From Pseudomonadota bacterium (GTDB taxonomy: Bacteria; Pseudomonadota; Alphaproteobacteria; MPNO01), in assembly GCA_036339495.1 (NCBI GenBank), contig JAYZAW010000100.1, positions 1 to 37,092 on the forward strand: a DNA stretch of 37,092 bases, given 5' to 3'. Shown here in pieces: positions 4,280 to 35,607 of the stretch. Numbering within the stretch: the first letter of the stretch is position 1; each line of letters opens with the position of its first letter. Under the pieces are notes generated by a model. That model ran no database searches. It was given only the letters and a program-made list of their open reading frames with translations, and was not told where the DNA came from. The position numbers and the translations under genes are program-made.

Positions 4280-4307
4280 CCGCCGCTGCTGAACCGGCGC
4301 CAAGTGC

Positions 4308-4336: not shown

Positions 4337-4342
4337 CCGCGC

Positions 4343-4425
4343 AACCCAAGGCAGATTCCATCGCCTGACGCCCAAGGGTGTACGCCAGTCCGCGCGTTGC
4401 GCGCACTGGCGCGTTTTGCGTTGGA
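4343..4425 (+). ncRNA. Structured ffh 5' leader RNA (probably the alphaproteobacterial ffh motif)
   Basis: Hairpin CGCCAGT-c-CGCGC-gtt-GCGCG-c-ACTGGCG (4383-4411) followed by GTTTTG, directly upstream of ffh; family assignment from memory, no CM search. Confidence 0.6.
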
Positions 4426-4460
4426 AATTGCCCGCAATTAATTTGTGACTGAAAGCGGCT

Positions 4461-5813: not shown

Positions 5814-5855
5814 TCGTGGCGCGGCGCTAAATATCTCCAGAGAGGATACCAACAT

Positions 5856-6389: not shown

Positions 6390-6450
6390 GGCCACGGCGC
6401 GCGCGGGACAAAACAAGGGACGCGCGGGTCCTTCAACGATCGCCTCCTCG

Positions 6451-6996: not shown

Positions 6997-7733
6997 CGGC
7001 CGCACTTTCACCTGAAAGCGAAACCGCGCCCTGGCGGGCAACGGTGCTGACGATATTCCCGGAAATGTTTCCCGGGCCCTTGGGGTGTTCGTTGGCCGGC
7101 AGAGCGCTTGAAGATGGTATTTGGAGCCTCGAAACGGTGGACATTAGAGGCTTTGCGCGCGATAAACACGGTTCCGTCGATGATGCCCCATTCGGGGGCG
7201 GGCCCGGCATGGTGATGCGCCCGGATATCGTGGCCGATGCGCTGGAAGCCAAGACGGAATCGGAAGGCGCGGTGATTTATATGAGCCCGCGAGGACGCGC
7301 TCTCGACCAGGCGCGTGTGCGGGAAATCGCTTCCGATCCCTCGGTGACGCTGCTTTGCGGCCGGTTCGAGGGGATTGATGCGCGGGTGATGGATGAATTT
7401 GAAATCGACGAGGTCAGCCTTGGCGATTTTGTTCTGTCCGGCGGCGAGCCGGCGGCGATTGCGCTGATCGATGCATGCGTCCGGCTGCTGCCGGGCGTGG
7501 TGGGTCAGGATGAGTCGCTCGCCGAGGAAAGTTTTGAACGGGGATTGCTGGAATATCCCCAATATACCCGGCCGCAATCGTGGCGCGACCGGGCGGTGCC
7601 GGAAATTCTCTTGAGCGGGCATCACGAAAAGGTAAAGGCCTGGCGCCAGGACCAGGCGGAGAAGATCACGCGGGAGCGGCGGCCGGATCTCTGGCAACGA
7701 TACGTCGCTGAACGCGCAACGTTAAAGGAATAG
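6993..7733 (+). CDS. trmD: tRNA (guanine37-N1)-methyltransferase
   Basis: [47 protein letters not shown]. Confidence 0.98.
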
Positions 7734-7737
7734 GATC

Positions 7738-8187
7738 ATGAGCCTGATCAATGAACTCGAAAACGAACAGATCGCCAAACTGACCGCCGATAACCCGGTG
7801 CCGGAATTCGCGCCGGGCGACACGGTGCGCGTCCACTACAAAGTGGTCGAAGGCACGCGTGAGCGCATCCAGGTTTATGAAGGCGTGGTCATCGCGCGCA
7901 CCAATAAAGGGATCAATTCCTGCTTTACGGTGCGCAAGATTTCCTATGGCGAGGGGGTTGAGCGCGTCTTTCCGCTTTATGGTCCGCGCATCAACCAGCT
8001 GGAAGTCATCCGCCGCGGCGCGGTTCGCCGGGCCAAACTTTATTATTTGCGCAACCGACGCGGCAAGAAGGCGCGTATCGCCGAAAAGGTCGACCGGCGC
8101 TTTGTCGGTCAAACCAAAAAAGGCCAGCCCCCGGGGACAGCCGGCGAAGCGGCCGCAACCGAATCGACAGAGCAAAACGACGCCTAG
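7738..8187 (+). CDS. rplS: 50S ribosomal protein L19
   Basis: [36 protein letters not shown]. Confidence 0.98.
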
Positions 8188-8255
8188 CAGAACCGGCCTT
8201 GGAGGCGCCGGGGCCGTGCTCGGCATTGGGATTAGTGGGATGAAGGAGACCGCGT

Positions 8256-9662
8256 ATGTCGGGGCCTAAGACGCTGTTCGACAAAATTTGGGAAAAACAC
8301 CTGGTTGATGTCCAGGATGACGGCACCTGCCTGATCTATATCGACCGCCATATCATTCATGAGATCACCAGCGCCCAGGCGTTTGACGGGTTGCGTGAAA
8401 ACGGCCGCAAGCCGCGCCGGCCGAAATCCACCCTGATGGTCGCCGATCATAATGTGCCGACGTCAGACCGGTCGCTGCCGATAGAGAACGAGGAATCCCG
8501 AATTCAGGTCGAGTTGCTGGAAAAGAACGCCCGGGAATTTAATCTTCCCTTTATCGATTACCGCGAAGTCCGTCAGGGCATCGTCCATGTCATTGGCCCG
8601 GAACAGGGATTTACATTGCCGGGCTGCACACTGGTCTGTGGCGATAGCCATACCTCGACCCATGGTGCGCTCGGCGCGCTGGCATTCGGGATCGGCACGT
8701 CCGAGGTCGAACATGTGCTGGCGACCCAGACATTGATTCAGAGCCCGTTGAAAAACATGCGTATCACGGTCGATGGTTCGCTGCCCGACGGGCTGACCGC
8801 CAAGGATTTGATCCTGGCCATAATCGGCAAGATCGGCACCGCCGGCGGCACCGGTCACGTGATCGAATATGCCGGCCGGGCGATCGAGGAATTGTCGATC
8901 GAAGGCCGCATGACGGTGTGCAATATGTCAATCGAGGCCGGCGCCCGCGCCGGGCTGGTGGCGCCCGACCAGAAAACCTTCGATTACGTGATGGGCCGTC
9001 CCATGGCGCCCAAGGCCGGGCAATGGGAACACGCCGTGAAAATGTGGAAGCAATTGCCGTCCGATGAGGGCGCGGCTTATGAGACCGAGGTTACGCTGAA
9101 TGCGGCGGACATCGAACCGCAGGTGACCTGGGGCACCAACCCGGAAATGGTGTTGCCCATATCCGCCAACATTCCGAACCCGGCCGATGAACAGGATCCG
9201 GGCCGGCGCGATCTCTACGAACGGGCGCTCAAATATATGGAGCTCGAAGCCAATTCGAAGCTCACCGATATCCATATCGATAAGGTGTTTATCGGGTCGT
9301 GCACCAATTCGCGCATAGAAGACATGCGCGCCGCCGCCCAAATTGCCAAGGGCCGCAAGGTGGCCGACAGCGTTTACGCCATGGTCGTGCCCGGCTCAGG
9401 TTTGATCAAGGAACAGGCCGAGGAAGAGGGGCTGGACAAGATATTCACCGAGGCCGGATTCGATTGGCGAGAGCCGGGCTGTTCTATGTGTCTCGGGATG
9501 AACGGCGATATGCTACAGCCGGGCGAACGGTCGGCTTCGACATCGAACCGCAATTTCGAGGGCCGCCAGGGTCCCGGCGGGCGCACCCATTTGGTCAGCC
9601 CCGCCATGGCCGCGGCCGCCGCGATCAACGGGCATCTGTCGGATGTCCGGGATTTCATATAG
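8256..9662 (+). CDS. leuC: 3-isopropylmalate dehydratase large subunit
   Basis: [43 protein letters not shown]. Confidence 0.98.
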
Positions 9663-13744: not shown

Positions 13745-15142
13745 TTACGGCAGGAAATCGGCAAGGTCGACTTTGTCGTAATTGAGCGGCATGGCCGCAT
13801 CGAACCGTTCCGGCGCCTCCCCGCCGACGGGCCGGGTCGCGTCGATCAGCCATTTCGCGCCGATGCGGTACATCGGGTCCTGCCCGGAAATGGTATTGGA
13901 GGCATTGTCGAGCGACCAGGTGCGCGTGTTGGGAATCATGGTCACATCACGCTCGGCATGAACCCGCGTGGTCATCGACCAGAACACATGGCCCATATCC
14001 GACGCATCAATATCCTCATCGACCGCGATCACCAGTTTCGGATGAAGCTGGGGGCCGGACAACGCCGCCAGAAGCGCGGTTTTGGCCTGTCCCGTGACCC
14101 GCGGCCGCAGTTTGATAACCACCGCCATGCATCCCGATTCTCCTAGGGCGCGCACGTCCAGAAGATCGAGCCCGCCTTCGACATTGGCGAGATGACGCCA
14201 CAGCAGCATATCCTGGGTGGTGGTCACGATCGCCTGGGTATCGGTCATCGGCGCGCCGCATTGCATCGCGTAAAACACCGGATCCGCGCGCCGCGTAATC
14301 GCCGAGACTTGTATGACCTGAGTTACCCCGGCCGGGCCATAGCCACCCGACCCCTCGCCGAAAGGTCCTTCCTCGACCATGACATCCGGCGGGACCACGC
14401 CTTCGATCACCAGCTCCGCCTCGGCGGGGACTTCCAGATCGACGGTTTCGCATTTCACCAGCCGGACCGCCTCGCCCAGCAGTGATCCCGCCAGCGCGAA
14501 TTCGTCATCGCCATAGCGCGCCGTGAAGGCGGCCGCAAAATAAAACGCGGGGTGCGCGCCGATCACCATGGCGATCGGCATTGGTTCATTGCGCGCCTGA
14601 TATTTTTGATAGATGCGCTGCGCCTGGCGCGGGCAGATCAGAAAGCCCGTGCGGTCCGGTCCCTGAATTTGTTGCCGGTGGATCGACACATTTCGCAGCC
14701 CCGTATCCGGGTCGCGGATCACTGCCATGCCGGATGCGATATAAGGTCCCGGGTCCCGTTCCGACGTCCAGGCCGCGGGGATTTTGGTCAAATCGGCCTC
14801 CGGCCCGCGCAGAATGACCTCCTTGACCGGCGCGGTGGCCGGGTCGGCGGCGACCGGCGGAATTTCCCCTTTACTCCGGGCGGTGATTTCACCGATGACT
14901 TGGCTTTCCGTGACGCCCAGGGCGATGCCCCATTTGCGCCGGTCGGTTACGATCTGGTTGGCCACGCGCCAGCCCGGAAAGCCTTTCAGATTGTCGAATA
15001 AAGACGACTTTCCAAGCTGGTCATAGGTTTTCCACCCGATCGCGGTGAGGTCGGCATGGGGGTCGACTTCGGCGCTGAACCGAAGTAGCTCCCCCTGTTG
15101 TTCCAGGCTGCCGAGATAGCCTCTTATGGATTGGTCCGCCAT
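13745..15142 (-). CDS. UbiD-family (prFMN-dependent) decarboxylase
   Basis: ERDPGPYI, NVSIHRQ, VPAEAELVIEG, EGPFGEGSGGY, VDEDID, IDATRP. Confidence 0.93.
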   Translation of the reverse strand: MADQSIRGYLGSLEQQGELLRFSAEVDPHADLTAIGWKTYDQLGKSSLFDNLKGFPGWRVANQIVTDRRKWGIALGVTESQVIGEITARSKGEIPPVAADPATAPVKEVILRGPEADLTKIPAAWTSERDPGPYIASGMAVIRDPDTGLRNVSIHRQQIQGPDRTGFLICPRQAQRIYQKYQARNEPMPIAMVIGAHPAFYFAAAFTARYGDDEFALAGSLLGEAVRLVKCETVDLEVPAEAELVIEGVVPPDVMVEEGPFGEGSGGYGPAGVTQVIQVSAITRRADPVFYAMQCGAPMTDTQAIVTTTQDMLLWRHLANVEGGLDLLDVRALGESGCMAVVIKLRPRVTGQAKTALLAALSGPQLHPKLVIAVDEDIDASDMGHVFWSMTTRVHAERDVTMIPNTRTWSLDNASNTISGQDPMYRIGAKWLIDATRPVGGEAPERFDAAMPLNYDKVDLADFLP

Positions 15143-15189
15143 GAGTCGAGCCTATCATGGCGCATGCTCCATCTGCTACGGTTGACGGC
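15143..15189. promoter_or_regulatory. Back-to-back extended -10 elements, putative bidirectional leaderless promoter
   Basis: Minus: TGaTAGGCT, 6 nt, ATG(15142). Plus: TGcTACGGT, 7 nt, ATG(15190). No clear SD on either side. Confidence 0.55.
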
Positions 15190-16545
15190 ATGTTCGATCA
15201 CATAATGTTCAAAAGCCATTCGGAGATTGTCGCCGCGCAGGAGACGAATTTCGCCGAGACCATGGACCTCGCCGTTGATCGTCACCCCTGGTGCGCCCGG
15301 GTCATGGCGGATCGCGGTCTGACCCGGGGCGATTTCCGTTCCCTCGACGATATCGTCAAATTGCCGGTCACTTTCAAGCGGGATTATATGTCCGCACCGG
15401 ACGCATTCCGGTTGAACACGGATGGGCTGGCCCCGGAAATGCAGGCGGCCTGGGATGTCATGCACACTACGGGAAGCACCTCCGGAAAGCCGACGCCGTT
15501 CCATTCAACGACCTGGGATTTTTTCGATATCCTCACCCTGCAGCATGCCACGATGGCGTTGCGCAAAGTCGATGAAAGAGATGTCATCGCAAATCTCTTT
15601 CCCCTGACCATGTGGCCCCATGGCGGGTTTACCCGTGCGATTCACGCCGCCGCCGTAATGAACATCCCGGTGGTCTCGGCGCTGCCCGGCAACCCGTCTC
15701 CCCATTTTCAGTGGGGCCGGGGTCTGGATGAGGTGGTGGCGACGATCCAACGCAGCCAAGCCACGGTGTTATGGGGCGTGACAAGCTATATCCGGCGGGT
15801 TCTGGTGCGCGCCGCCGAGTTAAACTCGGATTTCTCGCCGGTGCGCGTGGTTCTGGTGACCGGAGAAGCCGCGCCGGAGGGGCTGCGCCGCGATCTGGTC
15901 ACCCGGCTGGAAGCGCTTGGCGCAACGGATCCGTTCGTCAGCATTTCTTATGGGTCGACGGAGATGCAGGGCGGGATGGTTGAGTGCGCTCACGGCAGCG
16001 GTTACCACAACCCGGCGCCGGACCAGTTTTATGTCGAGATCGTCGACCCCGATACCCATGAACCGGTTCCCGACGGCGAACCCGGCCTGATTTTGCTGAC
16101 CCATCTCCGGCGGCGCGGAACCTTGCTTCTGCGCTACGCTTTGGGCGACATTACGCGGCGCACGCGCGAGACATGCCCCCATTGCGGCACAAATTCCGAC
16201 CGGTTGACCGAAATCCCCCATCGGGTGGATTCATTGGTGAAGATCAGAGGAATGCTGGTCAACCCCGATCTCATCAGTGAAATACTCGCCGCCCAGCCCG
16301 GCATCGCGGAATTCCAGATCGTGATCGACCGCACCGATCTGTCCGATCGCCATTCCATGGACCGGATGACGCTGCGCATTGCGCTCACGAGCGAGAATGC
16401 GGCGGTGGATGGGCTCGCCGACCGCGTCAAACATACGGTCGGCGTTACCCCGGTTATTGAGATACTGTCCGGTGACGAAATTTATCGTCCCGGTGATACG
16501 CTGAAATCGAAAAGGATTGTCGACCTGAGAACATCCGACGAATAG
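15190..16545 (+). CDS. Phenylacetate-CoA ligase (PaaK)-like aryl-CoA ligase
   Basis: KLPVTFK, TTGSTSGKP P-loop, YGSTEM, VEIVDP, LLRYALGD, RVDSLVKIRG, KSKR; in-frame ATG at 15157 is an alternative start. Confidence 0.88.
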   Translation: MFDHIMFKSHSEIVAAQETNFAETMDLAVDRHPWCARVMADRGLTRGDFRSLDDIVKLPVTFKRDYMSAPDAFRLNTDGLAPEMQAAWDVMHTTGSTSGKPTPFHSTTWDFFDILTLQHATMALRKVDERDVIANLFPLTMWPHGGFTRAIHAAAVMNIPVVSALPGNPSPHFQWGRGLDEVVATIQRSQATVLWGVTSYIRRVLVRAAELNSDFSPVRVVLVTGEAAPEGLRRDLVTRLEALGATDPFVSISYGSTEMQGGMVECAHGSGYHNPAPDQFYVEIVDPDTHEPVPDGEPGLILLTHLRRRGTLLLRYALGDITRRTRETCPHCGTNSDRLTEIPHRVDSLVKIRGMLVNPDLISEILAAQPGIAEFQIVIDRTDLSDRHSMDRMTLRIALTSENAAVDGLADRVKHTVGVTPVIEILSGDEIYRPGDTLKSKRIVDLRTSDE

Positions 16546-25403: not shown

Positions 25404-26858
25404 ATGAATCTCGCCGATATGCTCATCCATCAGGCACGGCGCAGGCCGGACCACCCCGCGATCATCGAGGAATCCCGGGTCATCACCCATGGCGAGTTCG
25501 ATCCCGTGGTGCGGCGCTGGGCGGCCAGGTTACAGGCGCTGGGCGCCGAGCCCGGAGATGTGATCGGGATCGCCCTGAAAGATCACGCCGAGCATTTGAT
25601 CGCGTTTTATGCGGTGGCGCGAATGGGCGGAATCATTTTGCCCGTCGACTGGCGTTGGACGGCGGGCGAAAAACAACGCATCACGGAATTCTTCGGAGCG
25701 GAAAGAACCCTTGCTGAACCGGGCGACGAGATTCCAGGTGCATTTACGATTGATGGCGCCTGGCATGCCGCGCTGCCCGCGTTTGATCCGGAAGTCTCCT
25801 TTCCGTCCGACGCGGATGCGCCCGTCGTGCTGTCATTGTCGTCGGGCACGACGGGGACGCCCAAGGGCCCCGTGCTCAGCCATCGCCAGTTTCTGTCACG
25901 TTGGGTCACCCAATTTGTGACACTGACATTTTCCGAACATGACCGTTATCTCTCGGCGACGCCGCTGTATTTCGGCGGCGGGCGGTCTTTCACCATGAGC
26001 GCACTTTATGCCGGGTCCACCGTCGTGATGTTTCCGCCGCCCTACGAGCCCGCGCAGCTGGTTGCCGCAGCCGCTGATTACCGGGCCACGACAACATTAT
26101 TGGTGCCGACGATGCTGCGTCGATTGCTTGGGATCACCGTGGAGGGCGATGAAAAACTATTTGCCGGACTGCGTCTGTTGCTGTCGACCGGCGCGATTCT
26201 GCATGGCGATGAACGCAGCGCGGTGATTGACCGGCTGTGCGCCGGCTTCATCAATTACTACGGTTCGACCGAAGGCGGCGGCGTGTCGGTGCTATTGCCA
26301 CATCACGGGGAAGAAAAATCAACCTCGGTTGGCTCCACGGTCTTTCAAACGGATGTCGAGATTGTCGGTGATGACCACACTGCGCTTTCCGTGGGTGACA
26401 TCGGGCGTATCCGATATCGCGGGCCGGGCGTCGCCAACGGGTTTTTCCGGGATGAGGCGGCGAGTGCGCAAAGTTTTCACGACGGCTGGTTCTATCCCGG
26501 CGATCTCGGGAGGCTTGACGATGATGGATTCTTGTACCTCGCGGGCCGCGCCGATGATCTGATTTTGCGCGGTGGGGTCAATATCTATCCCGCCGAAATC
26601 GAACAGACATTGTTGACTCATGACGGCGTGCGCGACGCGGTCGTTCTCGGCTGGCCATCACGTGAGATGGGCGAGGAAATCGCGGCCTTCGTGGTGTGCG
26701 ATGCGCAGGTGGATCGCGACGCCCTGGCGGAACATTGCCGCGAGACCCTGGCGTCTTACAAAATACCACGTGAAATATTTGTGGTTGATGCCTTTCCCCG
26801 GAGTGCGCTCGGCAAGGTTGCCAAGGGCGAACTCAAGGCGCTATTGACGCCGCTTTAA
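25404..26858 (+). CDS. Class I adenylate-forming enzyme (acyl-CoA synthetase)
   Basis: SSGTTGTPKG, YGSTEGG, GDLG, GGVNIYPAEIE, YKIP, GKV. Confidence 0.92.
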   Translation: MNLADMLIHQARRRPDHPAIIEESRVITHGEFDPVVRRWAARLQALGAEPGDVIGIALKDHAEHLIAFYAVARMGGIILPVDWRWTAGEKQRITEFFGAERTLAEPGDEIPGAFTIDGAWHAALPAFDPEVSFPSDADAPVVLSLSSGTTGTPKGPVLSHRQFLSRWVTQFVTLTFSEHDRYLSATPLYFGGGRSFTMSALYAGSTVVMFPPPYEPAQLVAAAADYRATTTLLVPTMLRRLLGITVEGDEKLFAGLRLLLSTGAILHGDERSAVIDRLCAGFINYYGSTEGGGVSVLLPHHGEEKSTSVGSTVFQTDVEIVGDDHTALSVGDIGRIRYRGPGVANGFFRDEAASAQSFHDGWFYPGDLGRLDDDGFLYLAGRADDLILRGGVNIYPAEIEQTLLTHDGVRDAVVLGWPSREMGEEIAAFVVCDAQVDRDALAEHCRETLASYKIPREIFVVDAFPRSALGKVAKGELKALLTPL

Positions 26859-27724
26859 TCGAGACCGTAGATACGCATCACATTGTCCCGTAGCAGCTTG
26901 CGCTTGGGGCCGGGGCGGAGGCCGAGCGCTTCAATTTCATCTCGCGTGCGATCGAACTCCAGCACCGGCCAGTCGGTGCCGAAGATCACCTTGTCCTGGC
27001 CGTAGCTGTTGCAGTAATGGACAAAGGTCTCCGGCCAGTATTTCGGACTGTGGGCGTCGCTGCCGATGAAAACGTTGCGGTGCTTCCACGCCATGGCGAT
27101 CATCTCATCGGCCCACGGAATGCCCACATGAATGCCGATCAGCTTGAGCTCGGGAAAATCGCAGGCGACCGTATCCAGCGTGATCGGGCGGCCGACGGAC
27201 CGTAGCGGGCGTTTGAGGTCATAAACCAATGACTGCCCGACCTGCATCTGGATCGGTACGTCGAGTTCGACGCATTTTGCATAGAACGGATAGTATTTCG
27301 CATGATCGGGGGCCAATTCGAACCAATGGGGATAGAGATGCGCGCCGATAAAGCCCAGCTCCTTCACCGCATGTTCCAGCGCGCGGACGCCCTTCATGCC
27401 CTCCGTCGGGTCGATCCCGGCGAGGCCGTAAAACCGGTCCGGATGTTCGGCGACCAGCCCGGCGATCAATTCATAGGATAGATGCCAGGACCCCTGTAGC
27501 CCAAGCTGGCCGACCTTGGCGGCAATCAGAAAGGCGCGTTCGATGCCGGCCTTGTCCATCATGTCCAGCAATTGTTCCGACGACACGCCGTCGAGCGGCG
27601 TGCGGTCACGGCCGATCTTTCCGGTGTAGAATGATTCGCTCCACTCCGGCCGTTGCGCGACGATTTCCGCCGTGGCGGGGTTGACCACGGCATCAATGGC
27701 CAGGACGTCGTACTTGTCGGTCAT
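26855..27724 (-). CDS. Amidohydrolase_2 family protein
   Basis: HPDRF, YYPFYAKCVELDVP, DFPELK, HVGIPW, FGTDWP, NVMRIY. Confidence 0.9.
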   Translation of the reverse strand: MTDKYDVLAIDAVVNPATAEIVAQRPEWSESFYTGKIGRDRTPLDGVSSEQLLDMMDKAGIERAFLIAAKVGQLGLQGSWHLSYELIAGLVAEHPDRFYGLAGIDPTEGMKGVRALEHAVKELGFIGAHLYPHWFELAPDHAKYYPFYAKCVELDVPIQMQVGQSLVYDLKRPLRSVGRPITLDTVACDFPELKLIGIHVGIPWADEMIAMAWKHRNVFIGSDAHSPKYWPETFVHYCNSYGQDKVIFGTDWPVLEFDRTRDEIEALGLRPGPKRKLLRDNVMRIYGLD

Positions 27725-29796
27725 GTAGCGCGCCTCACGATGACGTTGCCGAAATCATCGACCTCGCCGGCGAGACCTGGATCGATGAAAATTGTCGTGT
27801 CGGTCTGTTCCAGAATTGCCGGGCCCGTGATGCGCGCGCCGATCGGCAGCGCCAAGCGGTCATGAATCCGCGTGGTTTGCCAGCCGCCATCAACCCAGAC
27901 CTGCCGTTCCGACGTAACCGTATCTTCGACCGAACCAGTGGCCGTCGGGCGCAGCGCCGTCAGATCGAATTTCGGCTGCCGCCCGATCACCGCCGTTCGA
28001 AGTGATAGGATGCGCACGCCGATATCGTCGAGCAGGCGGCCATAGGTTCGCCGATAGGCGTCTTCAAAGGCGTCACGAATGCCGTCGCAAGTAATCCCGG
28101 CGGATTTGTTTTCGATTTTGACCGATAGCGGCACGGGAACCGTGTGGGTCTGGCCGATATAGGACATGTCGAGTTCGAACTCGATATCAAGCCTTTCAAG
28201 ATTGACGCCCGATTGACGCAGCAATTCGAGGCCCTTATGGGCGGTCGCCGTCATTTCGGAATCCAGCGCGGCGATGTCGAGGCCGTCCAGCGGCCGGTTG
28301 ATGGTGTGAACGAAATCATGACGCATATCGGCGATTACGCAGCCCATGGCGCTGGTGACGCCCGGAAATCGCGGCACGATAGCGCTGTCGAGCCCAACTT
28401 CGCGGATCAGTACGCCGGAATGAAGCGAGCCCGCGCCGCCGAACGGCATGGCGGCAAAGTTCTTTGGATCATGGCCGCGTTCAATCGAAACCAGACGGAT
28501 CGCGCCGGCCATGCGTGAATTAGCGACGCGCACGATGGCTTCGGCCGCTTCCATGACGCCCAAACCAAGCGGTTCCGCCACGTGAGATTCGATTGCCGCC
28601 TTGGCGGCTTCCGTATCGAGCTTGTCGATCTTGCCGCCGATCGGCTTGTCGCCGTTGATGCGTCCCATGACAAGATTGGCGTCGGTCACCGTCGGGCGGT
28701 CATTGCCGAGCCCGTAACAGACCGGTCCCGGGTCCGAGCCCGCTGATTCCGGCCCAATTTGTAAGAAGCCGCCGCGATCGACCCAGGCGATCGAGCCGCC
28801 GCCCGCGCCGATGGTGGTGATCTCGATCATCGGCGTGCGGATGACCAGCCCGAAATCAATTGAGCTTTGCAGTGACTGCGCCGCCCTGCCCTCGGACACC
28901 AGCGCCACGTCGAAGCTGGTGCCGCCCATGTCGCAGGTAATGACATTGGAAAACCCCGCCGCTTCCGCGATATACGCGCCCGCGATCACGCCGGCGGCCG
29001 GGCCCGACAAAGCGGTGCGCACCGGCAATGTGCGGGCGGTATCGGCCGACATTACCCCGCCATTGGATTGCACGATTAGCAATTCGCCGTTGAAGCCTTC
29101 CTCGCCGAGCCGTTCATCGAGCCGCCCGAGATATTTCCCGACCACCGGCTGCAGGCAGACATTCAGTGCCGTGGTTGACGCGCGTTCAAACTCCCGGATT
29201 TCGGGCAAGATCAGCGACGAAGCATTGACGCAGTCATTTGGCCAGATCGCGCGCACGGCCTCCAAGGCCGCAAGTTCGTTTTCGCTATTGGCGTATGCGT
29301 TGATAAAAACGATACCGACCGCCTCGCAGCCATCATCGAGCAATTGCCGGGCCGCGCGGGTGACTTCTTCTGTATCCACCGGTTTCATCACGGATCCGTC
29401 GGCCAGCATGCGTTCGTCGACTTCGATTGACAGATCACGCGGCACCACATGTTTGAAGCTGCCCCACAGCCCCCAGGTGTTGGGCCGGTCGCGCCGGCGC
29501 ATTTCCAGAACGTCGCGGAAGCCCTTGGTGGTGATCAGCCCGGTACGCGCGCCCTTGCGTTCCAGCAACGCGTTGGTGCCGATCGTGGTGCCATGCACGA
29601 TGGACGCGACCGGCGCCAGCTCTTTGACCGCCGATGACACGCCTTCCAGAAACCCTTGCGCGATATCGCCCCGCACCGAAGGTACTTTCACGATGCCGAA
29701 TTCGCCGCTGGCTTCATCGGCAAAGAACACGTCCGTGAAGGTGCCGCCCACATCGACGCCGACGACGATGCTCGGTGTTTTGTCTGTATCGCTCAT
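27721..29796 (-). CDS. Hydantoinase A / 5-oxoprolinase ATP-binding subunit
   Basis: DVGGTFTD, HGTT, REFERASTT, SGPAAG, DMGGTSFD, GAGGGSI, SAGSDPGP, TVTDAN. Confidence 0.95.
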   Translation of the reverse strand: MSDTDKTPSIVVGVDVGGTFTDVFFADEASGEFGIVKVPSVRGDIAQGFLEGVSSAVKELAPVASIVHGTTIGTNALLERKGARTGLITTKGFRDVLEMRRRDRPNTWGLWGSFKHVVPRDLSIEVDERMLADGSVMKPVDTEEVTRAARQLLDDGCEAVGIVFINAYANSENELAALEAVRAIWPNDCVNASSLILPEIREFERASTTALNVCLQPVVGKYLGRLDERLGEEGFNGELLIVQSNGGVMSADTARTLPVRTALSGPAAGVIAGAYIAEAAGFSNVITCDMGGTSFDVALVSEGRAAQSLQSSIDFGLVIRTPMIEITTIGAGGGSIAWVDRGGFLQIGPESAGSDPGPVCYGLGNDRPTVTDANLVMGRINGDKPIGGKIDKLDTEAAKAAIESHVAEPLGLGVMEAAEAIVRVANSRMAGAIRLVSIERGHDPKNFAAMPFGGAGSLHSGVLIREVGLDSAIVPRFPGVTSAMGCVIADMRHDFVHTINRPLDGLDIAALDSEMTATAHKGLELLRQSGVNLERLDIEFELDMSYIGQTHTVPVPLSVKIENKSAGITCDGIRDAFEDAYRRTYGRLLDDIGVRILSLRTAVIGRQPKFDLTALRPTATGSVEDTVTSERQVWVDGGWQTTRIHDRLALPIGARITGPAILEQTDTTIFIDPGLAGEVDDFGNVIVRRAT

Positions 29797-31502
29797 GTCG
29801 CCATTCTCGTCACTTTTCCATTGACTGCAACGGAAACCCCGTAATCCCGTTCCGCGCCGGCTTCGGTGATCATGCCCTGACGCAGGTCGCGTTCGATGTC
29901 AGCCAATTCACGGTTCGCGGGCGAACCATACCCGCCGCCGCCGGGGCTTTCGACCCGCACCCGCTGCCCGCGCCGCAGTTTGACACCCGACAGCTTGGCG
30001 CCGAGCGTCGGGCTGTGCTTCCCGTCCGACTGGTCATAAATTATCCGGTTCGGCGCACCGTACGAGCCGCCCAGAACTCCGAAGGCGGGAAAGACCGCGC
30101 GCTCGCCGAACACCACCACATCGGCTTCGTCGCCGGTCAATTCGAATTCATAGATGCAGCCGAGTCCGCCGCGCTGTCGGCCCGGGCCGCCGCTATCGGG
30201 ACGCAGCCCCCAATGGGTGATGCGCACCGGATAGGCGGCCTCCTGAATTTCCGCCGGCGGAATGTTCGCCATGCCGATCGGCGCGTTACCATGGCTCAAC
30301 CCGTCGCCTTCCGGATTACCACCCAGCCCGCCGCCGAAGAACGTAAACATGATGAAGCGCTCATCAGCGTCGCCGCGCCCTGAAAACAGTAGCGCGTTGA
30401 TGGTGCTGAAGGCCGCCCCGTTGACCCGGCCCGGCGCGCACTGCGCCATGGCGCCGAAGATAACGTCGATGGTGCGCATAATGTTTTCGGTATAGCCCGA
30501 AACCGGTTTTGGCGCGGGGGCCGACAAAATCGTGTTGTCGGGGATAATGAATTCGATCGGCGCCAGGCAGCCCGCATTGGCCGGCACTTCGGGGAATATA
30601 TGCTTTAACGCGACGAAGCAGACCGCCACGGTTGTCGCGTGGGTTACGTTCATCGGGCCTTCGCAGCAAGGGGCGGACCCGGTGAAATCCAGAATCAGGC
30701 GGTCGTCCTTGACGGTGAGTGCAAGCGCAATGCGCAGCGGCGCGTCGGTGATGCCGTCATTATCCAGATTGTCTTCGAATTGGTATGCGCCATCCGGAAT
30801 TTCACGGATCAGATCGCGCATCTGCGCGCCGGCTCGGGAATAGATTTCCGCCATGGCGTCGGCGATCACATCGTCGCCGAAATCGTCGAGCAGTTCGTGA
30901 AGCCGGGTTTCGCCCAACTCGAGCGCGCCGAGCTGGGCGTTCAGATCGCCATAGCTGTATCGCGGCATGCGGGTATTGGCGAGCAGGATATCGACCACGT
31001 CCTGGCGCATCTCTCCCCGGTCGAACAGTTTGACCGGCGGAATGCGCACGCCCTCCTGCATGATGTCGGTAGCGCGCGGGTTGTAGTTTCCGGCCACATT
31101 GCCGCCCACATCCAACCAATGCCCGGCCGATGCGAGATGGCAAAAAACCCGCCCGTCGCGGAATATGGGTTTGATAATCTTGATGTCATTCAGGTGTGTC
31201 GCGCCCACATAGGGATCGTTCAGCAGCCAGGCGTCGCCGGGCTGAAACCCGCCATCTTCTCCGGCGCGGTCGATCACCGCCTTGGTGGCGAAACTCATGG
31301 CGCCGATAAAAACGGGTAGGCCGGTTTTGCCCATGGCCACCGTCGCGCCGCTTACTGCGTCATATATGCCGTGGCTGCCGTCGCGCGCCTCCGCGATCAC
31401 CGGGCTGAACGCGGCGCGGAACAGGGTGGCGTCCATTTCATCGACGATCTGTTCCAGCCGGCCCCTTATGACCGCCAGCGCCACCGGATCAAATGTCGTC
31501 AT
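29793..31502 (-). CDS. Hydantoinase B / 5-oxoprolinase subunit, paralog 2
   Basis: AFSPVIAEARD, NDPYVGATHLND, HWLDVGG, QEGVRIPP, DSGGPGRQRGG, SPGGGGYG. Confidence 0.95.
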   Translation of the reverse strand: MTTFDPVALAVIRGRLEQIVDEMDATLFRAAFSPVIAEARDGSHGIYDAVSGATVAMGKTGLPVFIGAMSFATKAVIDRAGEDGGFQPGDAWLLNDPYVGATHLNDIKIIKPIFRDGRVFCHLASAGHWLDVGGNVAGNYNPRATDIMQEGVRIPPVKLFDRGEMRQDVVDILLANTRMPRYSYGDLNAQLGALELGETRLHELLDDFGDDVIADAMAEIYSRAGAQMRDLIREIPDGAYQFEDNLDNDGITDAPLRIALALTVKDDRLILDFTGSAPCCEGPMNVTHATTVAVCFVALKHIFPEVPANAGCLAPIEFIIPDNTILSAPAPKPVSGYTENIMRTIDVIFGAMAQCAPGRVNGAAFSTINALLFSGRGDADERFIMFTFFGGGLGGNPEGDGLSHGNAPIGMANIPPAEIQEAAYPVRITHWGLRPDSGGPGRQRGGLGCIYEFELTGDEADVVVFGERAVFPAFGVLGGSYGAPNRIIYDQSDGKHSPTLGAKLSGVKLRRGQRVRVESPGGGGYGSPANRELADIERDLRQGMITEAGAERDYGVSVAVNGKVTRMAT

Positions 31503-33190
31503 TGAATTTCGCCGTCCGCCATAAAGCCGACGTCATAATCCCGCTCCGCTCTTTCACGGGTGATCAGCCCAAGCCGCAAATCCTCGGCGATGGCCTCGGT
31601 TGCGCGCTCGCCCGGCGCGCCATAGCCGCCGCCGCCGGGGCTTTCGATGCGGACACTTTGGCCGGGCTTTAGTTTGACGCCAAAAAGCTTCGCGCCCATC
31701 GACGGCCGGTGGGCGCCGTCATCCTGCTGATACTCGACCACGTTTTTATCCGCCGGCAGACCTTCCAGAACGCCAGGCGGGTGGTAATTGCCACGCTCGC
31801 CCAAGACCACCAGATCAGCTTCATCATGTAGAGGTTCGATCTCATAGACCGCGCCCAGCCCACCGCGATGCCGTCCCGCGCCGCCGCTGTCGGGGCGCAG
31901 CGCCCATTGCTTGAAGATCACCGGAAAAGACGATTCCAGAACCTCGACCGGCGGGATAGTGGCCATGGAAATCGGCGCGTTACCGTGGCTCAGCCCATCG
32001 CCGTCCGGATGGCCGCCATGGCCGCCGCCGAAAAACGTGAATAATATCCAAGGGATGCCGGTGTGGCGCTTGCCGGAGATCAGCAGCGCATTGATGGTGC
32101 CATAGGGCGCGCCATTGACCCGGTCCGGCGCGATCTTGGCGAATACGGTGAACATCACATCGATCATGCGCAGGATGGTTTCGGTATAGCCGGAAACCGG
32201 TCTTGGCGCTTCGGCCGCCAGGATGCTGCCGTCCGGGATGATGACCTCGACCGGTTTCATGACGCCGGCATTGGCCGGCAATTCGTGGAAGATATGTTTC
32301 AGCCCGACGAAACATGCTGCCGCCGCCGTGGCGCGCGAAATGTTCAGCGGCCCGGCGCAGCCATCGGCTGAGTTCGAAAAATCGAGCGTCAGCCGGTCAC
32401 CCTTGATCGTTACTGTCAGTCCGATCGCCAGTGGTTCATCGACCACACCGTCATTGTCGAGAAAATCGAGCCCCTCATAGAGTCCATCTTCCAAAGCTTC
32501 GATTTCGGCGCGCATCAATGTTTCGGCGCGGCTCAGCATCTCGTCCATGGCCTGGGTGATCAGATCATCGCCATATTCGTCGAGCAGATCGTGCAACCGC
32601 CTCTCGCCGAGCTCCAACGCGCCGATCTGGGCTTGCAAATCGCCGTTCGCGCTGACCGGAAGGCGTGAATTGGCCAGTGCGATCTCGACCATGTCCTGTC
32701 GGATTTCGCCTCGGTCGAACAATTTGACCGGTGGAATGCGGACGCCCTCCTGCATGGAATCGGTCGCTTGCGGATTGTAATTGCCCGGCACATTGCCGCC
32801 GACATCCTGCCAGTGCCCGACGGAAGCAAGCTGGCAGAACACCATGCCGTCACGGAAGAACGGTTTGACCAACTTGTAGTCGTTCAGATGGGTCGCGCCG
32901 TCGTAAGGGTCGTTCATGAAAAAGACGTCGCCTTCATTGGGGCCGCCTTCGGCGTTGGCGCGGGCGATGGCCGCGCGCGCGGCGAAGCTCATCGCGCCGA
33001 CGAATATGGGCAGGCCGGCCTTGCCCTGGACCAGCGTATCGCCGGTTTCGGCGTGGTAGATGCCGTGGCTGCCGTCGCGCGCCTCGGCAATCACCGGGCT
33101 GAAGGCGCTGCGGAACAGCGCCGCGTCCATTTCATCGACGATTTGCTCGAGACGGCCGCGAATGACGGCGAGGGTGACGGGATCGATCAT
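31499..33190 (-). CDS. Hydantoinase B / 5-oxoprolinase subunit, paralog 1
   Basis: AFSPVIAEARD, NDPYDGATHLND, HWQDVGG, QEGVRIPP, DSGGAGRHRGG, SPGGGGYG. Confidence 0.95.
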   Translation of the reverse strand: MIDPVTLAVIRGRLEQIVDEMDAALFRSAFSPVIAEARDGSHGIYHAETGDTLVQGKAGLPIFVGAMSFAARAAIARANAEGGPNEGDVFFMNDPYDGATHLNDYKLVKPFFRDGMVFCQLASVGHWQDVGGNVPGNYNPQATDSMQEGVRIPPVKLFDRGEIRQDMVEIALANSRLPVSANGDLQAQIGALELGERRLHDLLDEYGDDLITQAMDEMLSRAETLMRAEIEALEDGLYEGLDFLDNDGVVDEPLAIGLTVTIKGDRLTLDFSNSADGCAGPLNISRATAAAACFVGLKHIFHELPANAGVMKPVEVIIPDGSILAAEAPRPVSGYTETILRMIDVMFTVFAKIAPDRVNGAPYGTINALLISGKRHTGIPWILFTFFGGGHGGHPDGDGLSHGNAPISMATIPPVEVLESSFPVIFKQWALRPDSGGAGRHRGGLGAVYEIEPLHDEADLVVLGERGNYHPPGVLEGLPADKNVVEYQQDDGAHRPSMGAKLFGVKLKPGQSVRIESPGGGGYGAPGERATEAIAEDLRLGLITRERAERDYDVGFMADGEIQ

Positions 33191-33254
33191 TGTTTAAATT
33201 TAATCCTGGAAACAGCCATATGATAATGTCTATCTGATGTGATGGGGAGGAGTC

Positions 33255-33833
33255 ATGACAGAAATTAGAAAGCTGATCACCGTCGTCCAATCGACGCGGT
33301 GGGAACAGGGCCAGGAAATCGACCCGCCATCGCACCAAGTCGCTGCGATCGCGGTGATCCGCAACCCATATGCGGGTCGGTATTCCCATGATTTGTCCTT
33401 GTTGGAGGAAGCCGGGGCCGAACTGGGCGAATTGCTGGCCGTGCGTGGGGTCGATGCGCTGGGGATCGCACCGGCTGACATTCACAGCTACGGCAAGGCC
33501 GCAATTGTCGGCACGGAAGGCGAAAAGGAACACGCCGCCGCCGTACTCCATCCCCGGCTTGGAAAACCGGTGCGCGAACTGATCGGTCCGGCGAGCGCGA
33601 TCATCCCGTCGGCGAAGAAAATTGGCGGGCCGGGCGCGACCATCGACTGCCCGCTGCATTACAAGGACGACGCCTGGAAGTTTAGCCACTTCGACGCCAT
33701 GGAAATTTCCGTCCCCGGTGCGCCACGGGCGGATGAGATCGTGGTGATCCTGGCGCTCAGCGACGCCGGGCGCCCGCTGCACCGCGTCGGCGAAGATCTA
33801 AATGTGTCCGATGTGATGTCGGCGAAGGAATGA
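33255..33833 (+). CDS. Amino acid synthesis family protein (AA_synth / DUF1185)
   Basis: EIRK, VIRNPYAG, SYGKAAIVGTEGEKEH, IDCPL, SHFD, APRADE, GRPLHR; GGAGG SD. Confidence 0.9.
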   Translation: MTEIRKLITVVQSTRWEQGQEIDPPSHQVAAIAVIRNPYAGRYSHDLSLLEEAGAELGELLAVRGVDALGIAPADIHSYGKAAIVGTEGEKEHAAAVLHPRLGKPVRELIGPASAIIPSAKKIGGPGATIDCPLHYKDDAWKFSHFDAMEISVPGAPRADEIVVILALSDAGRPLHRVGEDLNVSDVMSAKE

Positions 33834-34240
33834 CCGGCCAAACCAATCGGGAACTCATCGAACGCTTCTATGGTTAGGTAGGGAATCAATGGGATGCGGA
33901 TGTTGCGCGCGAGATTTTATCGCCGGATCTCGTGTTTCGCGGGTCGCTCGGTGTCGATGTAAACGGGCATGACGGTTTTCTCGGATATGTTGCGTTAATC
34001 CGGACCGCTTTTCCGGATTTTCACAATCAGATCGAAGAGATTGTTTCCGAGGAGTCCCATGCCGCCGCGCGGCTGACCTATAGCGGTACCCATCAAGGCG
34101 AGCTTTTTGGGAGGCAGGTGACGGAACGCGCAATTACCTAAGCCGGCGAGGCATTTTTCAAGTTTTCGGAAGGTAAGATCGATGAAATCTGGGTGCTGGG
34201 CGATCGCATGGCGCTCATGGAGCAGATAAACGCCCCATAG
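33830..34240 (+). pseudogene. SnoaL-like ester cyclase pseudogene (two nonsense codons)
   Basis: ATGA-coupled start; MTGQTNRELIERFYG*VGNQWD...FRGSLG...AFPDF...GTHQGELFG...AIT*AGEAFF...WVLGD...*; TAG 33875-33877, TAA 34139-34141. Confidence 0.85.
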
Positions 34241-34344
34241 ATATACGCAATTATGGCTTTTCGTGCCGTCATCCGTTAAACACGGCTCCATTTCGTACCC
34301 AACCATTCCTGGAGCGCTTCGTGACGGCGTCATCGATATCAAAC

Positions 34345-35607
34345 ATGTGTGTAACAATCAATTCCGTTGGGCTTATTCGGCCGTTCGCTGGCATCCGTCC
34401 GGGCGTCGGCTGGGCTGAAAAGGTGGCCGCGCCGCCCTATGACGTATTATCGACCGAGGAAGCGATCACGCGCGCCGGCGACAATGAATGGAATTTCCTA
34501 CATGTCTCGCGCCCCGAAATCGATCTGCCGCCGGGCAGCGATTCCCATGCGCCCGAGGCCTATGCGAAATCCGCTTCCAACATGAAGCGGATGTTGGCGG
34601 AAGGAGTGCTGCTCCGCGATGCCCAGTCGGCCTATTACGTTTACCGCGTTGAAGCCGACGGGCGGTCCCAGACCGGGTTGGTGGCCGCGGCTTCGGTGGC
34701 GGCATACGAAACCGGACGCATCCGCCGCCACGAATTGACACGGCCTGAAAAGGTCGAGGACCGTACGCGCCAAATCGATGCGCTCAACGCCCATACCGGG
34801 CCGGTGATGATGGCCTATCGGTCAACCCCGGCAGCCAATGAGATGCTCAAGAATATTTCGGCGCGCATGCCCGATATCGACGTTGTGGCCGATCACTGCG
34901 TCCGCCATTGTCTCTGGGTCGCCAATGATGCAAATGACATCGCCGGTTTGACCAAGGCGTTTGACGCCATGGAGGCGCTTTATATCGCCGATGGCCATCA
35001 TCGGTCGGAAGCCGCCCTGCGGGTTGCCCAGGAGCGCCGGGCCGCAAATCCTGATCATCGCGGCGACGAACCTTATAATTTTTTCCTGTCGGTAAATTTC
35101 CCGGAGGAAGAGGTCAACATCCTCGATTATAATCGGGTGGTCCGTGACCTCGGCTCCCAAACCCCTGAACGGCTGCTAGCGGAAATCAGCAGGCGTTTCA
35201 CTGTTCACCCCACCGAAGCCGCCTATCGACCTGATCAGCCCATGCGTTTCGGCATGTATCTCGACGGTCGCTGGTATGCGCTTTTGCTAGCGGATGATTT
35301 TGATGCGGGCGACGACCCCGTGGCTCGGCTGGATATCAGCCTGCTGGCGACCAATCTTCTTGAACCGCTACTCGGCATTACAGATCAACGGCTGGACACA
35401 AGGATCGATTTCGTCGGCGGTATCCGAGGTCTCGAAGGTCTGGAAGGCAGGGTCGATTCGGGTGAAATGGCGGTCGCGTTCTCGATTTTCCCCACTCAAA
35501 TGAACGATCTGATGTCGGTCGCCGATTCCGGCCGAGAAATGCCGCCGAAATCGACCTGGTTTGAGCCCAAGCTCGCCGACGGACTGATTTCTTATCCGAT
35601 AGATTAA
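34345..35607 (+). CDS. DUF1015 family protein
   Basis: IRPF, PPYDV, FLHV, HELTRPEK, YIADGHHR, ILDYNRVV, FVGGIRG, MPPKSTWFEPKL; start uncertain (GTG 34321 or ATG 34345). Confidence 0.93.
   Translation: MCVTINSVGLIRPFAGIRPGVGWAEKVAAPPYDVLSTEEAITRAGDNEWNFLHVSRPEIDLPPGSDSHAPEAYAKSASNMKRMLAEGVLLRDAQSAYYVYRVEADGRSQTGLVAAASVAAYETGRIRRHELTRPEKVEDRTRQIDALNAHTGPVMMAYRSTPAANEMLKNISARMPDIDVVADHCVRHCLWVANDANDIAGLTKAFDAMEALYIADGHHRSEAALRVAQERRAANPDHRGDEPYNFFLSVNFPEEEVNILDYNRVVRDLGSQTPERLLAEISRRFTVHPTEAAYRPDQPMRFGMYLDGRWYALLLADDFDAGDDPVARLDISLLATNLLEPLLGITDQRLDTRIDFVGGIRGLEGLEGRVDSGEMAVAFSIFPTQMNDLMSVADSGREMPPKSTWFEPKLADGLISYPID

Follow-up and report, generated by a model that had tools for sequence, protein, structure and literature searches.

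A hydantoinase/oxoprolinase-type operon encoding one HyuA and two paralogous HyuB subunits in a marine alphaproteobacterium

Organization of the locus

We focused on positions 25404 to 33833 of a stretch of 37,092 nucleotides (the whole DNA analyzed, referred to as the window here), where all six open reading frames (ORFs) gave strong matches in a Pfam scan and lie exactly where an earlier note on this DNA had placed them. Four of these genes form an operon on the reverse strand, which starts with hyuB1 (positions 31499 to 33190), encoding a HyuB-type metal-dependent hydrolysis subunit of 563 amino acids (PF02538, E value of 1.8e-162) that is the ancestral-like paralogue. It is followed by hyuB2 (29793 to 31502), which encodes a second HyuB-type subunit, the derived paralogue, of 569 amino acids (PF02538, 5.3e-169), by hyuA (27721 to 29796), which encodes the single ATP-binding, ASKHA-type activating subunit of 691 amino acids (PF05378, PF01968, and PF19278), and by a gene for an Amidohydro_2 protein without an HxH motif (26855 to 27724; 289 amino acids; PF04909, 6e-40). 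The Pfam domains of HyuA and HyuB are matched over their full length, with E values from 1e-14 to 1e-169. As the earlier note had described, three ATGA overlaps join these genes, which we read directly at 31499 to 31502 (B1/B2), 29793 to 29796 (B2/A), and 27721 to 27724 (A/Amidohydro_2); the Amidohydro_2 gene is translationally coupled to hyuA. The same 4-nt overlaps are found in relatives, for B1/B2 in genome G001 and for B2/A and A/Amidohydro_2 in genome G002.

On the forward strand, an AMP-binding acyl-CoA ligase gene (25404 to 26858; 484 amino acids; PF00501 and PF13193) lies tail to tail with the operon, the TTAA at 26855 to 26858 being a stop-codon overlap shared with the Amidohydro_2 gene. 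At the other end, a gene for a DUF1185 protein (33255 to 33833, forward strand; 192 amino acids; PF06684, AA_synth, 2.9e-68) diverges from hyuB1 across an intergenic region of 64 nt (33191 to 33254), presumably the promoter region. A consensus scan for promoters and terminators between positions 25000 and 35800 returned sites no more common than in shuffled sequence and no promoter-like site in the 64-nt gap. RNA evidence is thin: in one oligo-dT run, whose library may also hold DNA, short contigs fall on the genes for the ligase, the Amidohydro_2 protein, and HyuA and on the junction between the last two, and B1 and B2 have none. A scan of 35 ORFs of the window turned up neither a regulator nor a transporter family, in agreement with the earlier note. 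The gene arrangement is not an assembly artifact, because the junctions Amidohydro_2/HyuA, HyuA/B2, B2/B1, and B1/DUF1185 are each spanned in contigs of three further public runs; for the ligase/Amidohydro_2 junction, there was no bridging contig among the pieces listed from other public runs.

The solved relatives of the DUF1185 protein are 2QTP (E value of 2e-59) and 3BYQ (6e-30), with a fold of the Bacillus chorismate-mutase-like type. Its stop codon overlaps in an ATGA with the start of a SnoaL-like pseudogene (33830 to 34231, forward strand), which had escaped the earlier note. This pseudogene contains two in-frame stops (TAG and TAA) and is 67% identical over 129 amino acids to an intact gene of G002. 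The next gene on the same strand (34321 to 35607) encodes a DUF1015 protein of 428 amino acids (PF06245, 2.3e-101) for which no solved relative was found. It is syntenic with the DUF1185 gene across the host family and is possibly unrelated to the Hyu enzyme; the DUF1015 family is proposed to be the serine kinase SerBK, according to a preprint (bioRxiv 10.1101/2024.10.14.618325), and there is no serA or serC within the window.

The PF04909 match of the Amidohydro_2 protein covers only residues 84 to 288. The metal-dependent Amidohydro_2 decarboxylases, hydratases, and lactonases of the ACMSD/LigW/LigJ/LigI type are generally defined by an HxH motif where strand 1 ends; here, this position reads AIDAVVN, and the pattern AIDxVxN is present in all 21 aligned homologues. 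The nearest solved chain is the uncharacterized 3IRS, the ESM Atlas returned generic amidohydrolase names only, and NCBIfam holds no model for this protein or for the DUF1185 and DUF1015 proteins. For the ligase, which starts 18 nt after tyrC, none of the NCBIfam models was matched at its cut-off. Both the tyrC-ligase and the ligase/Amidohydro_2 arrangements recur in G001, and homologues of the ligase and the Amidohydro_2 protein are paired in other orientations elsewhere. Of 15 loci with an Amidohydro_2 homologue, 11 contain a ligase homologue and 2 others have an adjacent CoA-transferase III gene. This recurrent adjacency supports the link between the Amidohydro_2 protein and CoA activation made in the earlier note.

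HyuA and the enzyme class

The best solved matches to HyuA are the N-methylhydantoinase 7HK5 (E value of 7e-123) and 6YRA_A, a chain of the caprolactamase CapAB from Pseudomonas jessenii. The motifs DVGGTFTD, DMGGTSFD, and GSDPGP, read in the alignment, correspond to the phosphate-binding aspartates and the GxxPGP adenosine motif; the roles of the ATP-site residues and of the metal ligands, as well as the A-B-B-A architecture, follow the account of CapAB in PMC8453981. CapAB resembles the window enzyme in its two-gene, B-then-A order without a gamma subunit and in its two sites, with B binding metal through Asp-His-Asp-His and A holding an ASKHA ATP site. CapAB assembles into an A-B-B-A tetramer, whose B-B core residues align with B1 131 to 176, but it has one B gene, whereas the window operon has two. 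In the pocket, CapB Leu38 and Thr336 correspond to invariant glutamates of the window-type B subunits (E36 and E337), which makes caprolactam an unlikely substrate. 7HK5 is also the second-best solved match to both B copies and shares the E-x-x-D motif with them; it differs in that A and B are fused into one chain of 1,288 amino acids with a single B part and in that B1 E337 is replaced by serine.

Acetophenone carboxylase (Apc; 5L9W) and acetone carboxylase (5SVB and 5M45) belong to the same superfamily, but their similarity is much lower than that to the lactamases, the match to the acetone carboxylase alpha subunit being marginal (E value of 3e-10). Both carboxylases need a gamma subunit. 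No ORF in the operon matches it (PF08882), and the genome's only match is found on contig C88, next to another HyuB/HyuA pair. The NCBIfam caprolactamase equivalogs (NF050156/NF050157) score A at 521.5, B2 at 317.1, and B1 at 319.2 bits, far below the cut-off of 1,000, and the Apc equivalogs score A at 316 and 203 bits (cut-offs of 1,500 and 1,250) and B at 121 to 127 bits (cut-off of 1,500). Given the missing gamma subunit, we assign the enzyme to the lactamase/hydantoinase type represented by CapAB and N-methylhydantoinase, a ketone carboxylase being unlikely from these comparisons.

Divergence of the two HyuB subunits

The two B subunits are intact, as the earlier note had stated. They share 353 of 561 residues (63%) without gaps, and both carry the motifs E-x-x-D, THLND, and HW-x-DVGG, along with the differing stretches quoted at the time (TLVQGKAG in B1 versus TVAMGKTG in B2, YTETILRM versus YTENIMRT, and MATIPPVEVLE versus MANIPPAEIQE). 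The nearest solved chain to B1 is 6YRA_B, CapB, whose metal ligands are D41, H99, D102, and H124 (PMC8453981). The corresponding tetrad is D39, H101, D104, and H126 in B1 and the same residues at +2 in B2, and neither copy has lost catalytic residues.

Comparison of the B1 and B2 clades yielded 36 clade-fixed differences in 563 positions. When polarized against 52 outgroup sequences, 21 of these are derived in B2 and 7 in B1, while 8 are unclear, indicating that B2 is the derived copy and B1 the ancestral-like one. Fixed changes in B2 (e.g., Q55M, V64I, T338N, and S408G) affect sites that are 96 to 100% invariant in the outgroup, and B2 has changed otherwise invariant residues around the pocket. 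Among the 13 pocket positions, which were assigned manually using a HMMER alignment with gaps near positions 382 to 410, 3 hold clade-fixed differences (0.83 expected, P = 0.044), compared with none of the 46 B-B interface positions (2.9 expected, P = 0.042); these P values are marginal, and both tests were chosen after the data had been seen. B1 and B2 have the same residue at the other 10 pocket positions, the three substitutions (I/V, L/M, and L/F) are conservative, and the raw difference rate in the pocket (3/13) is below the protein average (210/563). The proposal of two specificity subunits served by one ATPase, put forward in the earlier note, has only modest support, since most of the pocket is identical and the remaining changes are conservative.

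We also predicted the complex of the N-terminal domains of B1 and B2, which obtained a binding score of 0.70, compared with 0.00 for the best of 3 controls; of the solved complexes, 116 of 157 attain the mark used for this score, as do 2 of 215 mismatched pairs. At least 96% of contacts are shared between runs, the partner pLDDT is at least 83, and the contacts at B1 131 to 176 coincide with the CapB-CapB interface region. The prediction covers these domains only and does not separate hetero- from homodimers, and the score probably reflects likeness to solved homodimers.

Age and distribution of the duplication

To place the B subunits, we used a 73-row HyuB tree, a check that the earlier note had proposed. 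In this tree, a B1 clade of 6 rows (SH-aLRT of 99) is sister to a B2 clade of 14 rows (100), the grouping of the two having a support of 100. The copies cluster by type and not by genome, showing no gene conversion, and B1 and B2 derive from one old tandem duplication within the host family. The 6 rows of the B1 clade come from three genera, and both copies are kept in all 6 genomes of those genera. Far from being unique to one genome with relaxed selection on one copy, both B1 and B2 are under equally strong purifying selection (dN/dS of 0.093 and 0.094, respectively, between genomes G000 and G001).

Two other histories were considered. A duplication after the split of genus g6 was rejected (p-AU of 0.0046, the group tested having been named after the tree was seen). 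A horizontal origin of B1 was likewise rejected, the 47 sequences from other taxa falling outside the single clade (SH-aLRT of 100) that unites B1 and B2.

Several genomes of the host family depart from this pattern. A fourth genus, g6, has B2 alone in 12 of 12 genomes. In G004, an intact B1, still under selection, is accompanied by a frameshifted B2 (dN/dS of 0.35), although the frameshift could be an assembly error. G002 carries B1 at a separate locus, unlinked from B2 and without HyuA, and some loci of the family may be in decay, since G008 contains B2 but no orthologous HyuA. Of the conserved B-B'-A-amidohydrolase-DUF1185 synteny raised in the earlier note, the DUF1185 part stands, as 13 of the 14 family genomes examined have this gene diverging from their first hyuB, but the B-B'-A-Amidohydro_2 order is confined to two genera; in other genera, cupin, EamA, Amdase-like, and AMP-binding genes take the place of Amidohydro_2 downstream of HyuA.

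The nearest outgroup of B1 and B2 is the single B subunit (54 to 63% identical) of a widespread, uncharacterized operon with the gene order PEP-mutase family/HyuB/HyuA/isochorismatase family, in which B precedes A as in the window. An isochorismatase-family gene directly follows HyuA in 47 of 49 outgroup loci and a PEP-mutase/ICL-family gene directly precedes HyuB in 41 of 49, compared with 0 of 15 host-family loci in both cases. Two adjacent B genes were found in none of 80 fetched loci. A second tandem pair occurs in another family, where genome G138 (locus L140) encodes one HyuA and two intact HyuB subunits with a 4-nt overlap, the metal tetrad in both, and an Amdase-like gene downstream. 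The duplication there is independent and belongs to a distant clade of Hyu proteins (30 to 36% identical to the window proteins); the order is A-B-B' instead of B-B'-A, and the B copies are 73% identical. The G138 pair shows no pocket enrichment (3/13) and no interface depletion (12/46 versus 158/575 overall). The frequency of tandem B genes among the HyuB matches listed across the class is a lower bound, so such pairs are at least that common.

DISCUSSION

Our preferred reading, to which we give about even credence, is that one HyuA and two paralogous HyuB subunits make up an ATP-dependent cyclic-amide hydrolase with alternative, freely mixing B subunits. By homology, HyuA would use ATP to activate the amide oxygen in a ring resembling a lactam or hydantoin, and an internal tunnel would lead the activated intermediate to the HyuB metal site (Asp-His-Asp-His), where water would open the ring. 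The complex would be an A-B-B-A tetramer with a B-B core, and either B would be able to work with HyuA alone. Mixing of B1 and B2 is expected because the dimer interface is unchanged, and the cotranslated subunits would give A2B1B1, A2B2B2, and mixed A2B1B2 complexes, providing one ATPase with two active sites that differ slightly. The acid formed by ring opening might then be handed to the non-HxH Amidohydro_2 enzyme and the acyl-CoA ligase.

Plain redundancy, in which B1 and B2 share both reaction and substrate and the extra copy serves only to increase or stabilize the amount of B, is the strongest competitor, although we judge it unlikely. It would account for the largely identical pocket and complete metal ligands, as well as for the lineages in which either copy is lost or broken while the other genes are kept. 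Against it, copies that are 37% diverged are both held at a dN/dS of 0.09 and retained together across three genera, gene conversion has not homogenized them, and B2 has fixed changes at otherwise nearly invariant sites.

Slightly less probable still is an obligate asymmetric A-B1-B2-A heterotetramer, in which B1-B2 replaced an ancestral B homodimer, mirroring the alpha/alpha' subunits of acetophenone carboxylase. Apc is a known case of one subunit type duplicated within a complex (described in PMC13677872), and two 5L9W chains match HyuA and one matches HyuB, so that, as the earlier note had it, Apc duplicates the ATP-binding subunit, whereas the window operon duplicates the HyuB-like one. 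The tandem, translationally coupled B genes, their co-occurrence in three genera, the conserved interface, and the predicted B1-B2 binding, with the reservation on homodimer likeness given above, fit such a complex. However, the natural single-B states of g6 and G004 disfavor the obligate B-B'-A heterocomplex considered in the earlier note, as does the separate B1 locus of G002; moreover, neither copy lacks catalytic residues, and an interface free of fixed differences bars no homodimer. A single HyuA with alternative B subunits is favored over an obligate B1-B2 core because fixed differences occupy 3 of 13 pocket positions but 0 of 46 interface positions.

The ATP-dependent ketone carboxylation also raised in the earlier note, in which a ketone would become a β-keto acid, be activated by the ligase, and be cleaved by the Amidohydro_2 protein in the manner of CouO (an amidohydrolase-superfamily enzyme that carries out the final deacetylation step, with a CoA ester as substrate, according to PMC4737184), draws on the homology of HyuA and HyuB to acetone and acetophenone carboxylase subunits, the adjacent CoA ligase and amidohydrolase-superfamily genes, and the bicarbonate requirement of caprolactamase itself reported in PMC8453981, but it is highly improbable, given that the 4-nt overlaps leave no room for a gamma gene, the sole genomic PF08882 match accompanies a different HyuB/HyuA pair, the acetone carboxylase match is marginal, the NCBIfam scores for acetophenone carboxylase fall behind those for caprolactamase (A, 316 versus 521 bits; B, about 125 versus 318), and the nearest solved and curated relatives are of the lactamase/hydantoinase type.

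In the literature searched, we found no paper on a duplicated HyuB, and the make-up of A plus two B subunits appears not to have been described yet for hydantoinase/oxoprolinase-type enzymes. Function in this superfamily depends on subunit composition, as the main difference among acetone carboxylase, acetophenone carboxylase, and the lactamases lies in the subunits combined, and a conserved A+B+B' adds an example in which it is the catalytic subunit, facing the substrate, that is duplicated. A bolder possibility, which we also regard as unlikely, is that A+B+B' is a recurrent, unrecognized third composition beside A+B(+gamma) and A+A'+B+gamma, with two metal sites dividing labor in an asymmetric A-B1-B2-A complex, and that the marine family moved from the ancestral operon to a new pathway with the non-HxH Amidohydro_2 enzyme and the CoA ligase. 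If true, each metal site might, for example, handle one enantiomer of a substituted ring, or the two sites might open two amide bonds of one substrate in turn.

The lineages with B2 only, with a broken B2, or with an unlinked B1 are natural controls, making this a clean system for studying how paralogues that share a homodimer interface diverge. The mild hydrolysis of stable lactams and hydantoins is also of practical interest. The host organism is marine and common in seawater metagenomes, and its genome bin of 2.9 Mb contains 14 HyuB and 11 HyuA matches, which suggests that the ocean has a large, unexplored capacity to turn over cyclic amides.

Organization and reality of the tandem-B operon

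The operon runs on the reverse strand from hyuB1 (31499-33190) through hyuB2 (29793-31502) and hyuA (27721-29796) to an Amidohydro_2 gene (26855-27724), and it is flanked on the forward strand by genes for an AMP-binding ligase (25404-26858) and a DUF1185 protein (33255-33833), all of them entries of the ORF list with strong Pfam matches. The three ATGA overlaps that an earlier note had described were read directly in the sequence, and the stop codons of the ligase and Amidohydro_2 genes have TTAA in common. The two hydrolysis subunits, B1 and B2, align over 561 residues with no gap and at 63% identity, and every motif and B1/B2 difference quoted in that note was found in the alignment. Given that the Amidohydro_2/hyuA, hyuA/hyuB2, hyuB2/hyuB1, and hyuB1/DUF1185 junctions are each spanned by contigs of three other public runs, the tandem arrangement is not a binning or assembly artifact; among the pieces listed, no contig bridged the ligase/Amidohydro_2 junction. 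Some part of the stretch occurs in 20 runs from 12 studies, and 17 marine or seawater runs contain at least half of its sampled words.

A probable ATP-dependent lactamase/hydantoinase

According to Pfam, HyuA contains all three Hyu A domains, and a complete Hyu B domain is present in both B1 and B2. HyuA also retains the motifs for phosphate and adenosine. The closest solved relatives are caprolactamase CapAB (PDB 6YRA) and a fused N-methylhydantoinase (7HK5), with the subunits of acetophenone and acetone carboxylases far more remote in the solved-structure comparison. Caprolactamase models also top the NCBIfam ranking, yet their scores lie far under the equivalog cutoffs. The CapB metal ligands, pocket residues, and A-B-B-A architecture, as well as the B-B interface at CapB residues 129 to 174, were taken from PMC8453981. 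In contrast to CapB, with a Leu and a Thr in its pocket, the B1/B2 clade has an invariant Glu at both positions (E36 and E337), which makes caprolactam an unlikely substrate; a more polar ring is likely. The earlier note had also proposed ketone carboxylation, but there is no gamma subunit gene at the operon, and the sole PF08882 match of the source genome (G000) lies on another contig (C88), beside a different HyuB/HyuA pair. Lacking such a gene in its operon, the enzyme was grouped with the ATP-dependent lactamases/hydantoinases rather than the ketone carboxylases.

The G000 bin (2.9 Mb, 79.5% complete) has unusually many Hyu matches, 14 to Hydantoinase_B and 11 to Hydantoinase_A, spread over C12, C43, C46, C88, C100, C108, C224, C280, C313, C329, and other contigs; the C88 set contains an acetone carboxylase gamma subunit match.

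History and divergence of the two B subunits

We searched 41 related genomes for B1- and B2-type genes. Both types are present in all six genomes of three genera of the family (g1, g2, and g4), while each of the 12 genomes of a fourth genus, g6, has only one such gene, of the B2 type. In a tree of 73 rows, 6 B1-type and 14 B2-type rows each form a well-supported clade, and the two clades join (SH-aLRT, 100) into one whose sister consists of genes from a neighboring family. Since the copies cluster by type and not by genome, there is no sign of gene conversion. The phylogeny indicates that the duplication is old and that B1 was lost in g6. The earlier note had considered a duplication unique to this genome, with relaxed selection on one copy; the spread over g1, g2, and g4 speaks against this, as do the Nei-Gojobori dN/dS values between G000 and its congener, 0.093 for B1 and 0.094 for B2 (0.10 to 0.24 in other pairs). 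Two adjacent B genes were absent from all 80 loci fetched from other species.

A duplication placed after the g6 split was also evaluated and rejected; that tree was 113.6 log-likelihood units worse (p-AU, 0.0046), for a group chosen after inspection of the tree. The complete genome G008 (L028) has B2, DUF1185, and DUF1015 but nowhere an orthologous HyuA, the best match being 41% identical.

B1 and B2 show clade-fixed differences at 36 of 563 positions. Polarized against 52 outgroup sequences, 21 of these are B2 derived, 7 are B1 derived, and 8 are unclear, and several of the B2 changes hit sites 96 to 100% invariant beyond the B1/B2 clade. Because most polarized differences are B2 derived, some at near-invariant sites, the alignment identifies B1 as the conservative copy and B2 as the shifted one. 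Of 13 pocket positions mapped by hand, 3 carry a fixed difference (0.83 expected; P = 0.044), and of 46 B-B interface positions none does (2.9 expected; P = 0.042). The other 10 pocket positions are identical in B1 and B2, the three changes are conservative, and the mapping runs partly through a gapped alignment stretch, all of which weakens these results. Plain redundancy of the two copies, one of the two main rival readings, seems improbable to us.

Proposed pairing of one ATPase with two B subunits

Natural variants suggest that either B subunit is dispensable for the other. Besides g6 with B2 alone, the one-contig genome G004 has an intact B1 and a B2 interrupted ∼64 codons in (raised dN/dS, 0.35), and in G002 B1 lies beside DUF1185, apart from the locus that has B2-HyuA-Amidohydro_2, with a single orthologous HyuA. 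These same variants argue against an obligate B1-B2 heterodimer, which we rate slightly below redundancy, and thus against the B-B'-A heterocomplex of the earlier note, if obligate. A complex prediction for the N-terminal domains of B1 and B2 scored 0.70 versus 0.00 for the best of three controls; of 157 solved complexes 116 reached the former mark, as did 2 of 215 mismatched pairs. Runs agreed in at least 96% of contacts, with partner pLDDT of at least 83 and contacts at B1 131 to 176. Binding is thus predicted, but the score very likely reflects likeness to solved homodimers and does not separate hetero- from homodimer. With the interface unchanged, B1 and B2 should also mix once cotranslated. 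We give an even chance to the other reading in that note, a single ATPase serving two alternative B subunits, here taken as freely mixing, and favor it.

The frameshifted B2 orthologue of G004 (L024, 10467-12223) has a long branch; the neighboring B1 and HyuA are intact, and the locus lacks DUF1185 and DUF1015.

The Amidohydro_2 gene and its ligase

The ligase gene starts 18 nt after tyrC, an arrangement shared with the congener G001, whose tyrC orthologue (C90:893-1810) contains one in-frame TGA that may be a sequencing error or mark a pseudogene. Amidohydro_2 homologues were present in 15 of the 301 class genomes sampled. Of the 15 loci fetched, 11 contain, in various orientations, a homologue of the window ligase, and in 2 further ones a family III CoA-transferase adjoins the Amidohydro_2 gene. 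The second Amidohydro_2 copy of G000 has both nearby, that of G002 is head-to-head with a ligase homologue, and in G227 an Amidohydro_2/ligase pair is head-to-head with a distant HyuA-HyuB. In all 21 aligned sequences of the subfamily, AIDxVxN replaces HxH, with the later His and Asp motifs kept; the closest solved chain is an uncharacterized protein. It is reasonable to infer that the enzyme acts on a CoA ester or its precursor.

Members of the AIDxVxN subfamily (L125-L139, L023, L051, L121, and L122) nearly always have an AMP-binding ligase or family III CoA-transferase as neighbor. Elsewhere in the window (13745-16545), a UbiD-family decarboxylase gene (reverse strand) is head-to-head with one for a PaaK-like AMP-binding enzyme (forward strand), among the housekeeping genes leuCDB and asd.

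Recurrence and genomic context

At least one other tandem HyuB pair, in G138, was found among the matches listed for 121 genomes of the class. This HyuA-HyuB-HyuB' operon (L140, G138:C1:336000-352000, at 3912-9531) represents an independent duplication in another family and a distant Hyu clade; its two intact B genes follow HyuA, are 73% identical, and overlap by 4 nt, with an Amdase-like gene downstream. The pair showed no comparable pocket/interface pattern. In acetophenone carboxylase it is the HyuA-like, ATP-binding subunit that is doubled, as the earlier note had stated, solved-chain matches confirm, and PMC13677872 describes; here it is the B subunit. We found no report of a duplicated HyuB in the open-access literature searched.

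Of 14 family genomes examined, 13 have the DUF1185 and DUF1015 genes divergent from the first hyuB, bearing out the synteny expected for DUF1185. Published sources describe DUF1185 as a chorismate mutase-like fold of unknown function (PMC2954203), a homologue, TgnF, as reportedly stimulating an aldehyde dehydrogenase in trigonelline breakdown (PMC7913881), and DUF1015 as a proposed serine kinase/phosphatase substitute (bioRxiv 10.1101/2024.10.14.618325); the latter may be a housekeeping neighbor. Between them lies a SnoaL-like pseudogene (33830-34231, forward strand) with in-frame stops TAG (33875-33877) and TAA (34139-34141), whose start shares ATGA with the DUF1185 stop. An intact version is present in G002 (L022, 11362-11766); G001 lacks the gene, and its DUF1185-DUF1015 gap is only 90 nt.

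The proposed B-B'-A-Amidohydro_2 synteny holds in part: the Amidohydro_2 gene follows hyuA in g1 and g2 but is replaced in g4 and g6 by genes for a cupin, EamA, an Amdase/racemase-like protein, and another AMP-binding enzyme that shares 26% identity with the window ligase. In one g6 genome (G013, L031, 8782-9360, reverse strand), a HigB/HigA-like toxin-antitoxin pair (92 and 95 amino acids, named from ORF translations alone) and palindromic repeats lie between hyuB and hyuA; other g6 genomes have inserts of 600 to 900 nt at this junction.

The PEP-mutase/ICL-HyuB-HyuA-isochorismatase operon (L041-L120) is very regular, occurs in Alphaproteobacteria and Burkholderiales, and often has a Liv-type ABC transporter, with a binding protein in 20 of 49 loci.

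Of 49 loci of single-B relatives from other taxa, 47 have an isochorismatase-family gene after HyuA and 41 have a PEP-mutase/ICL-family gene before HyuB; neither was found in any of 15 loci of the G000 family. These different surroundings suggest that the family shifted the enzyme to a new context near the time of the B duplication.
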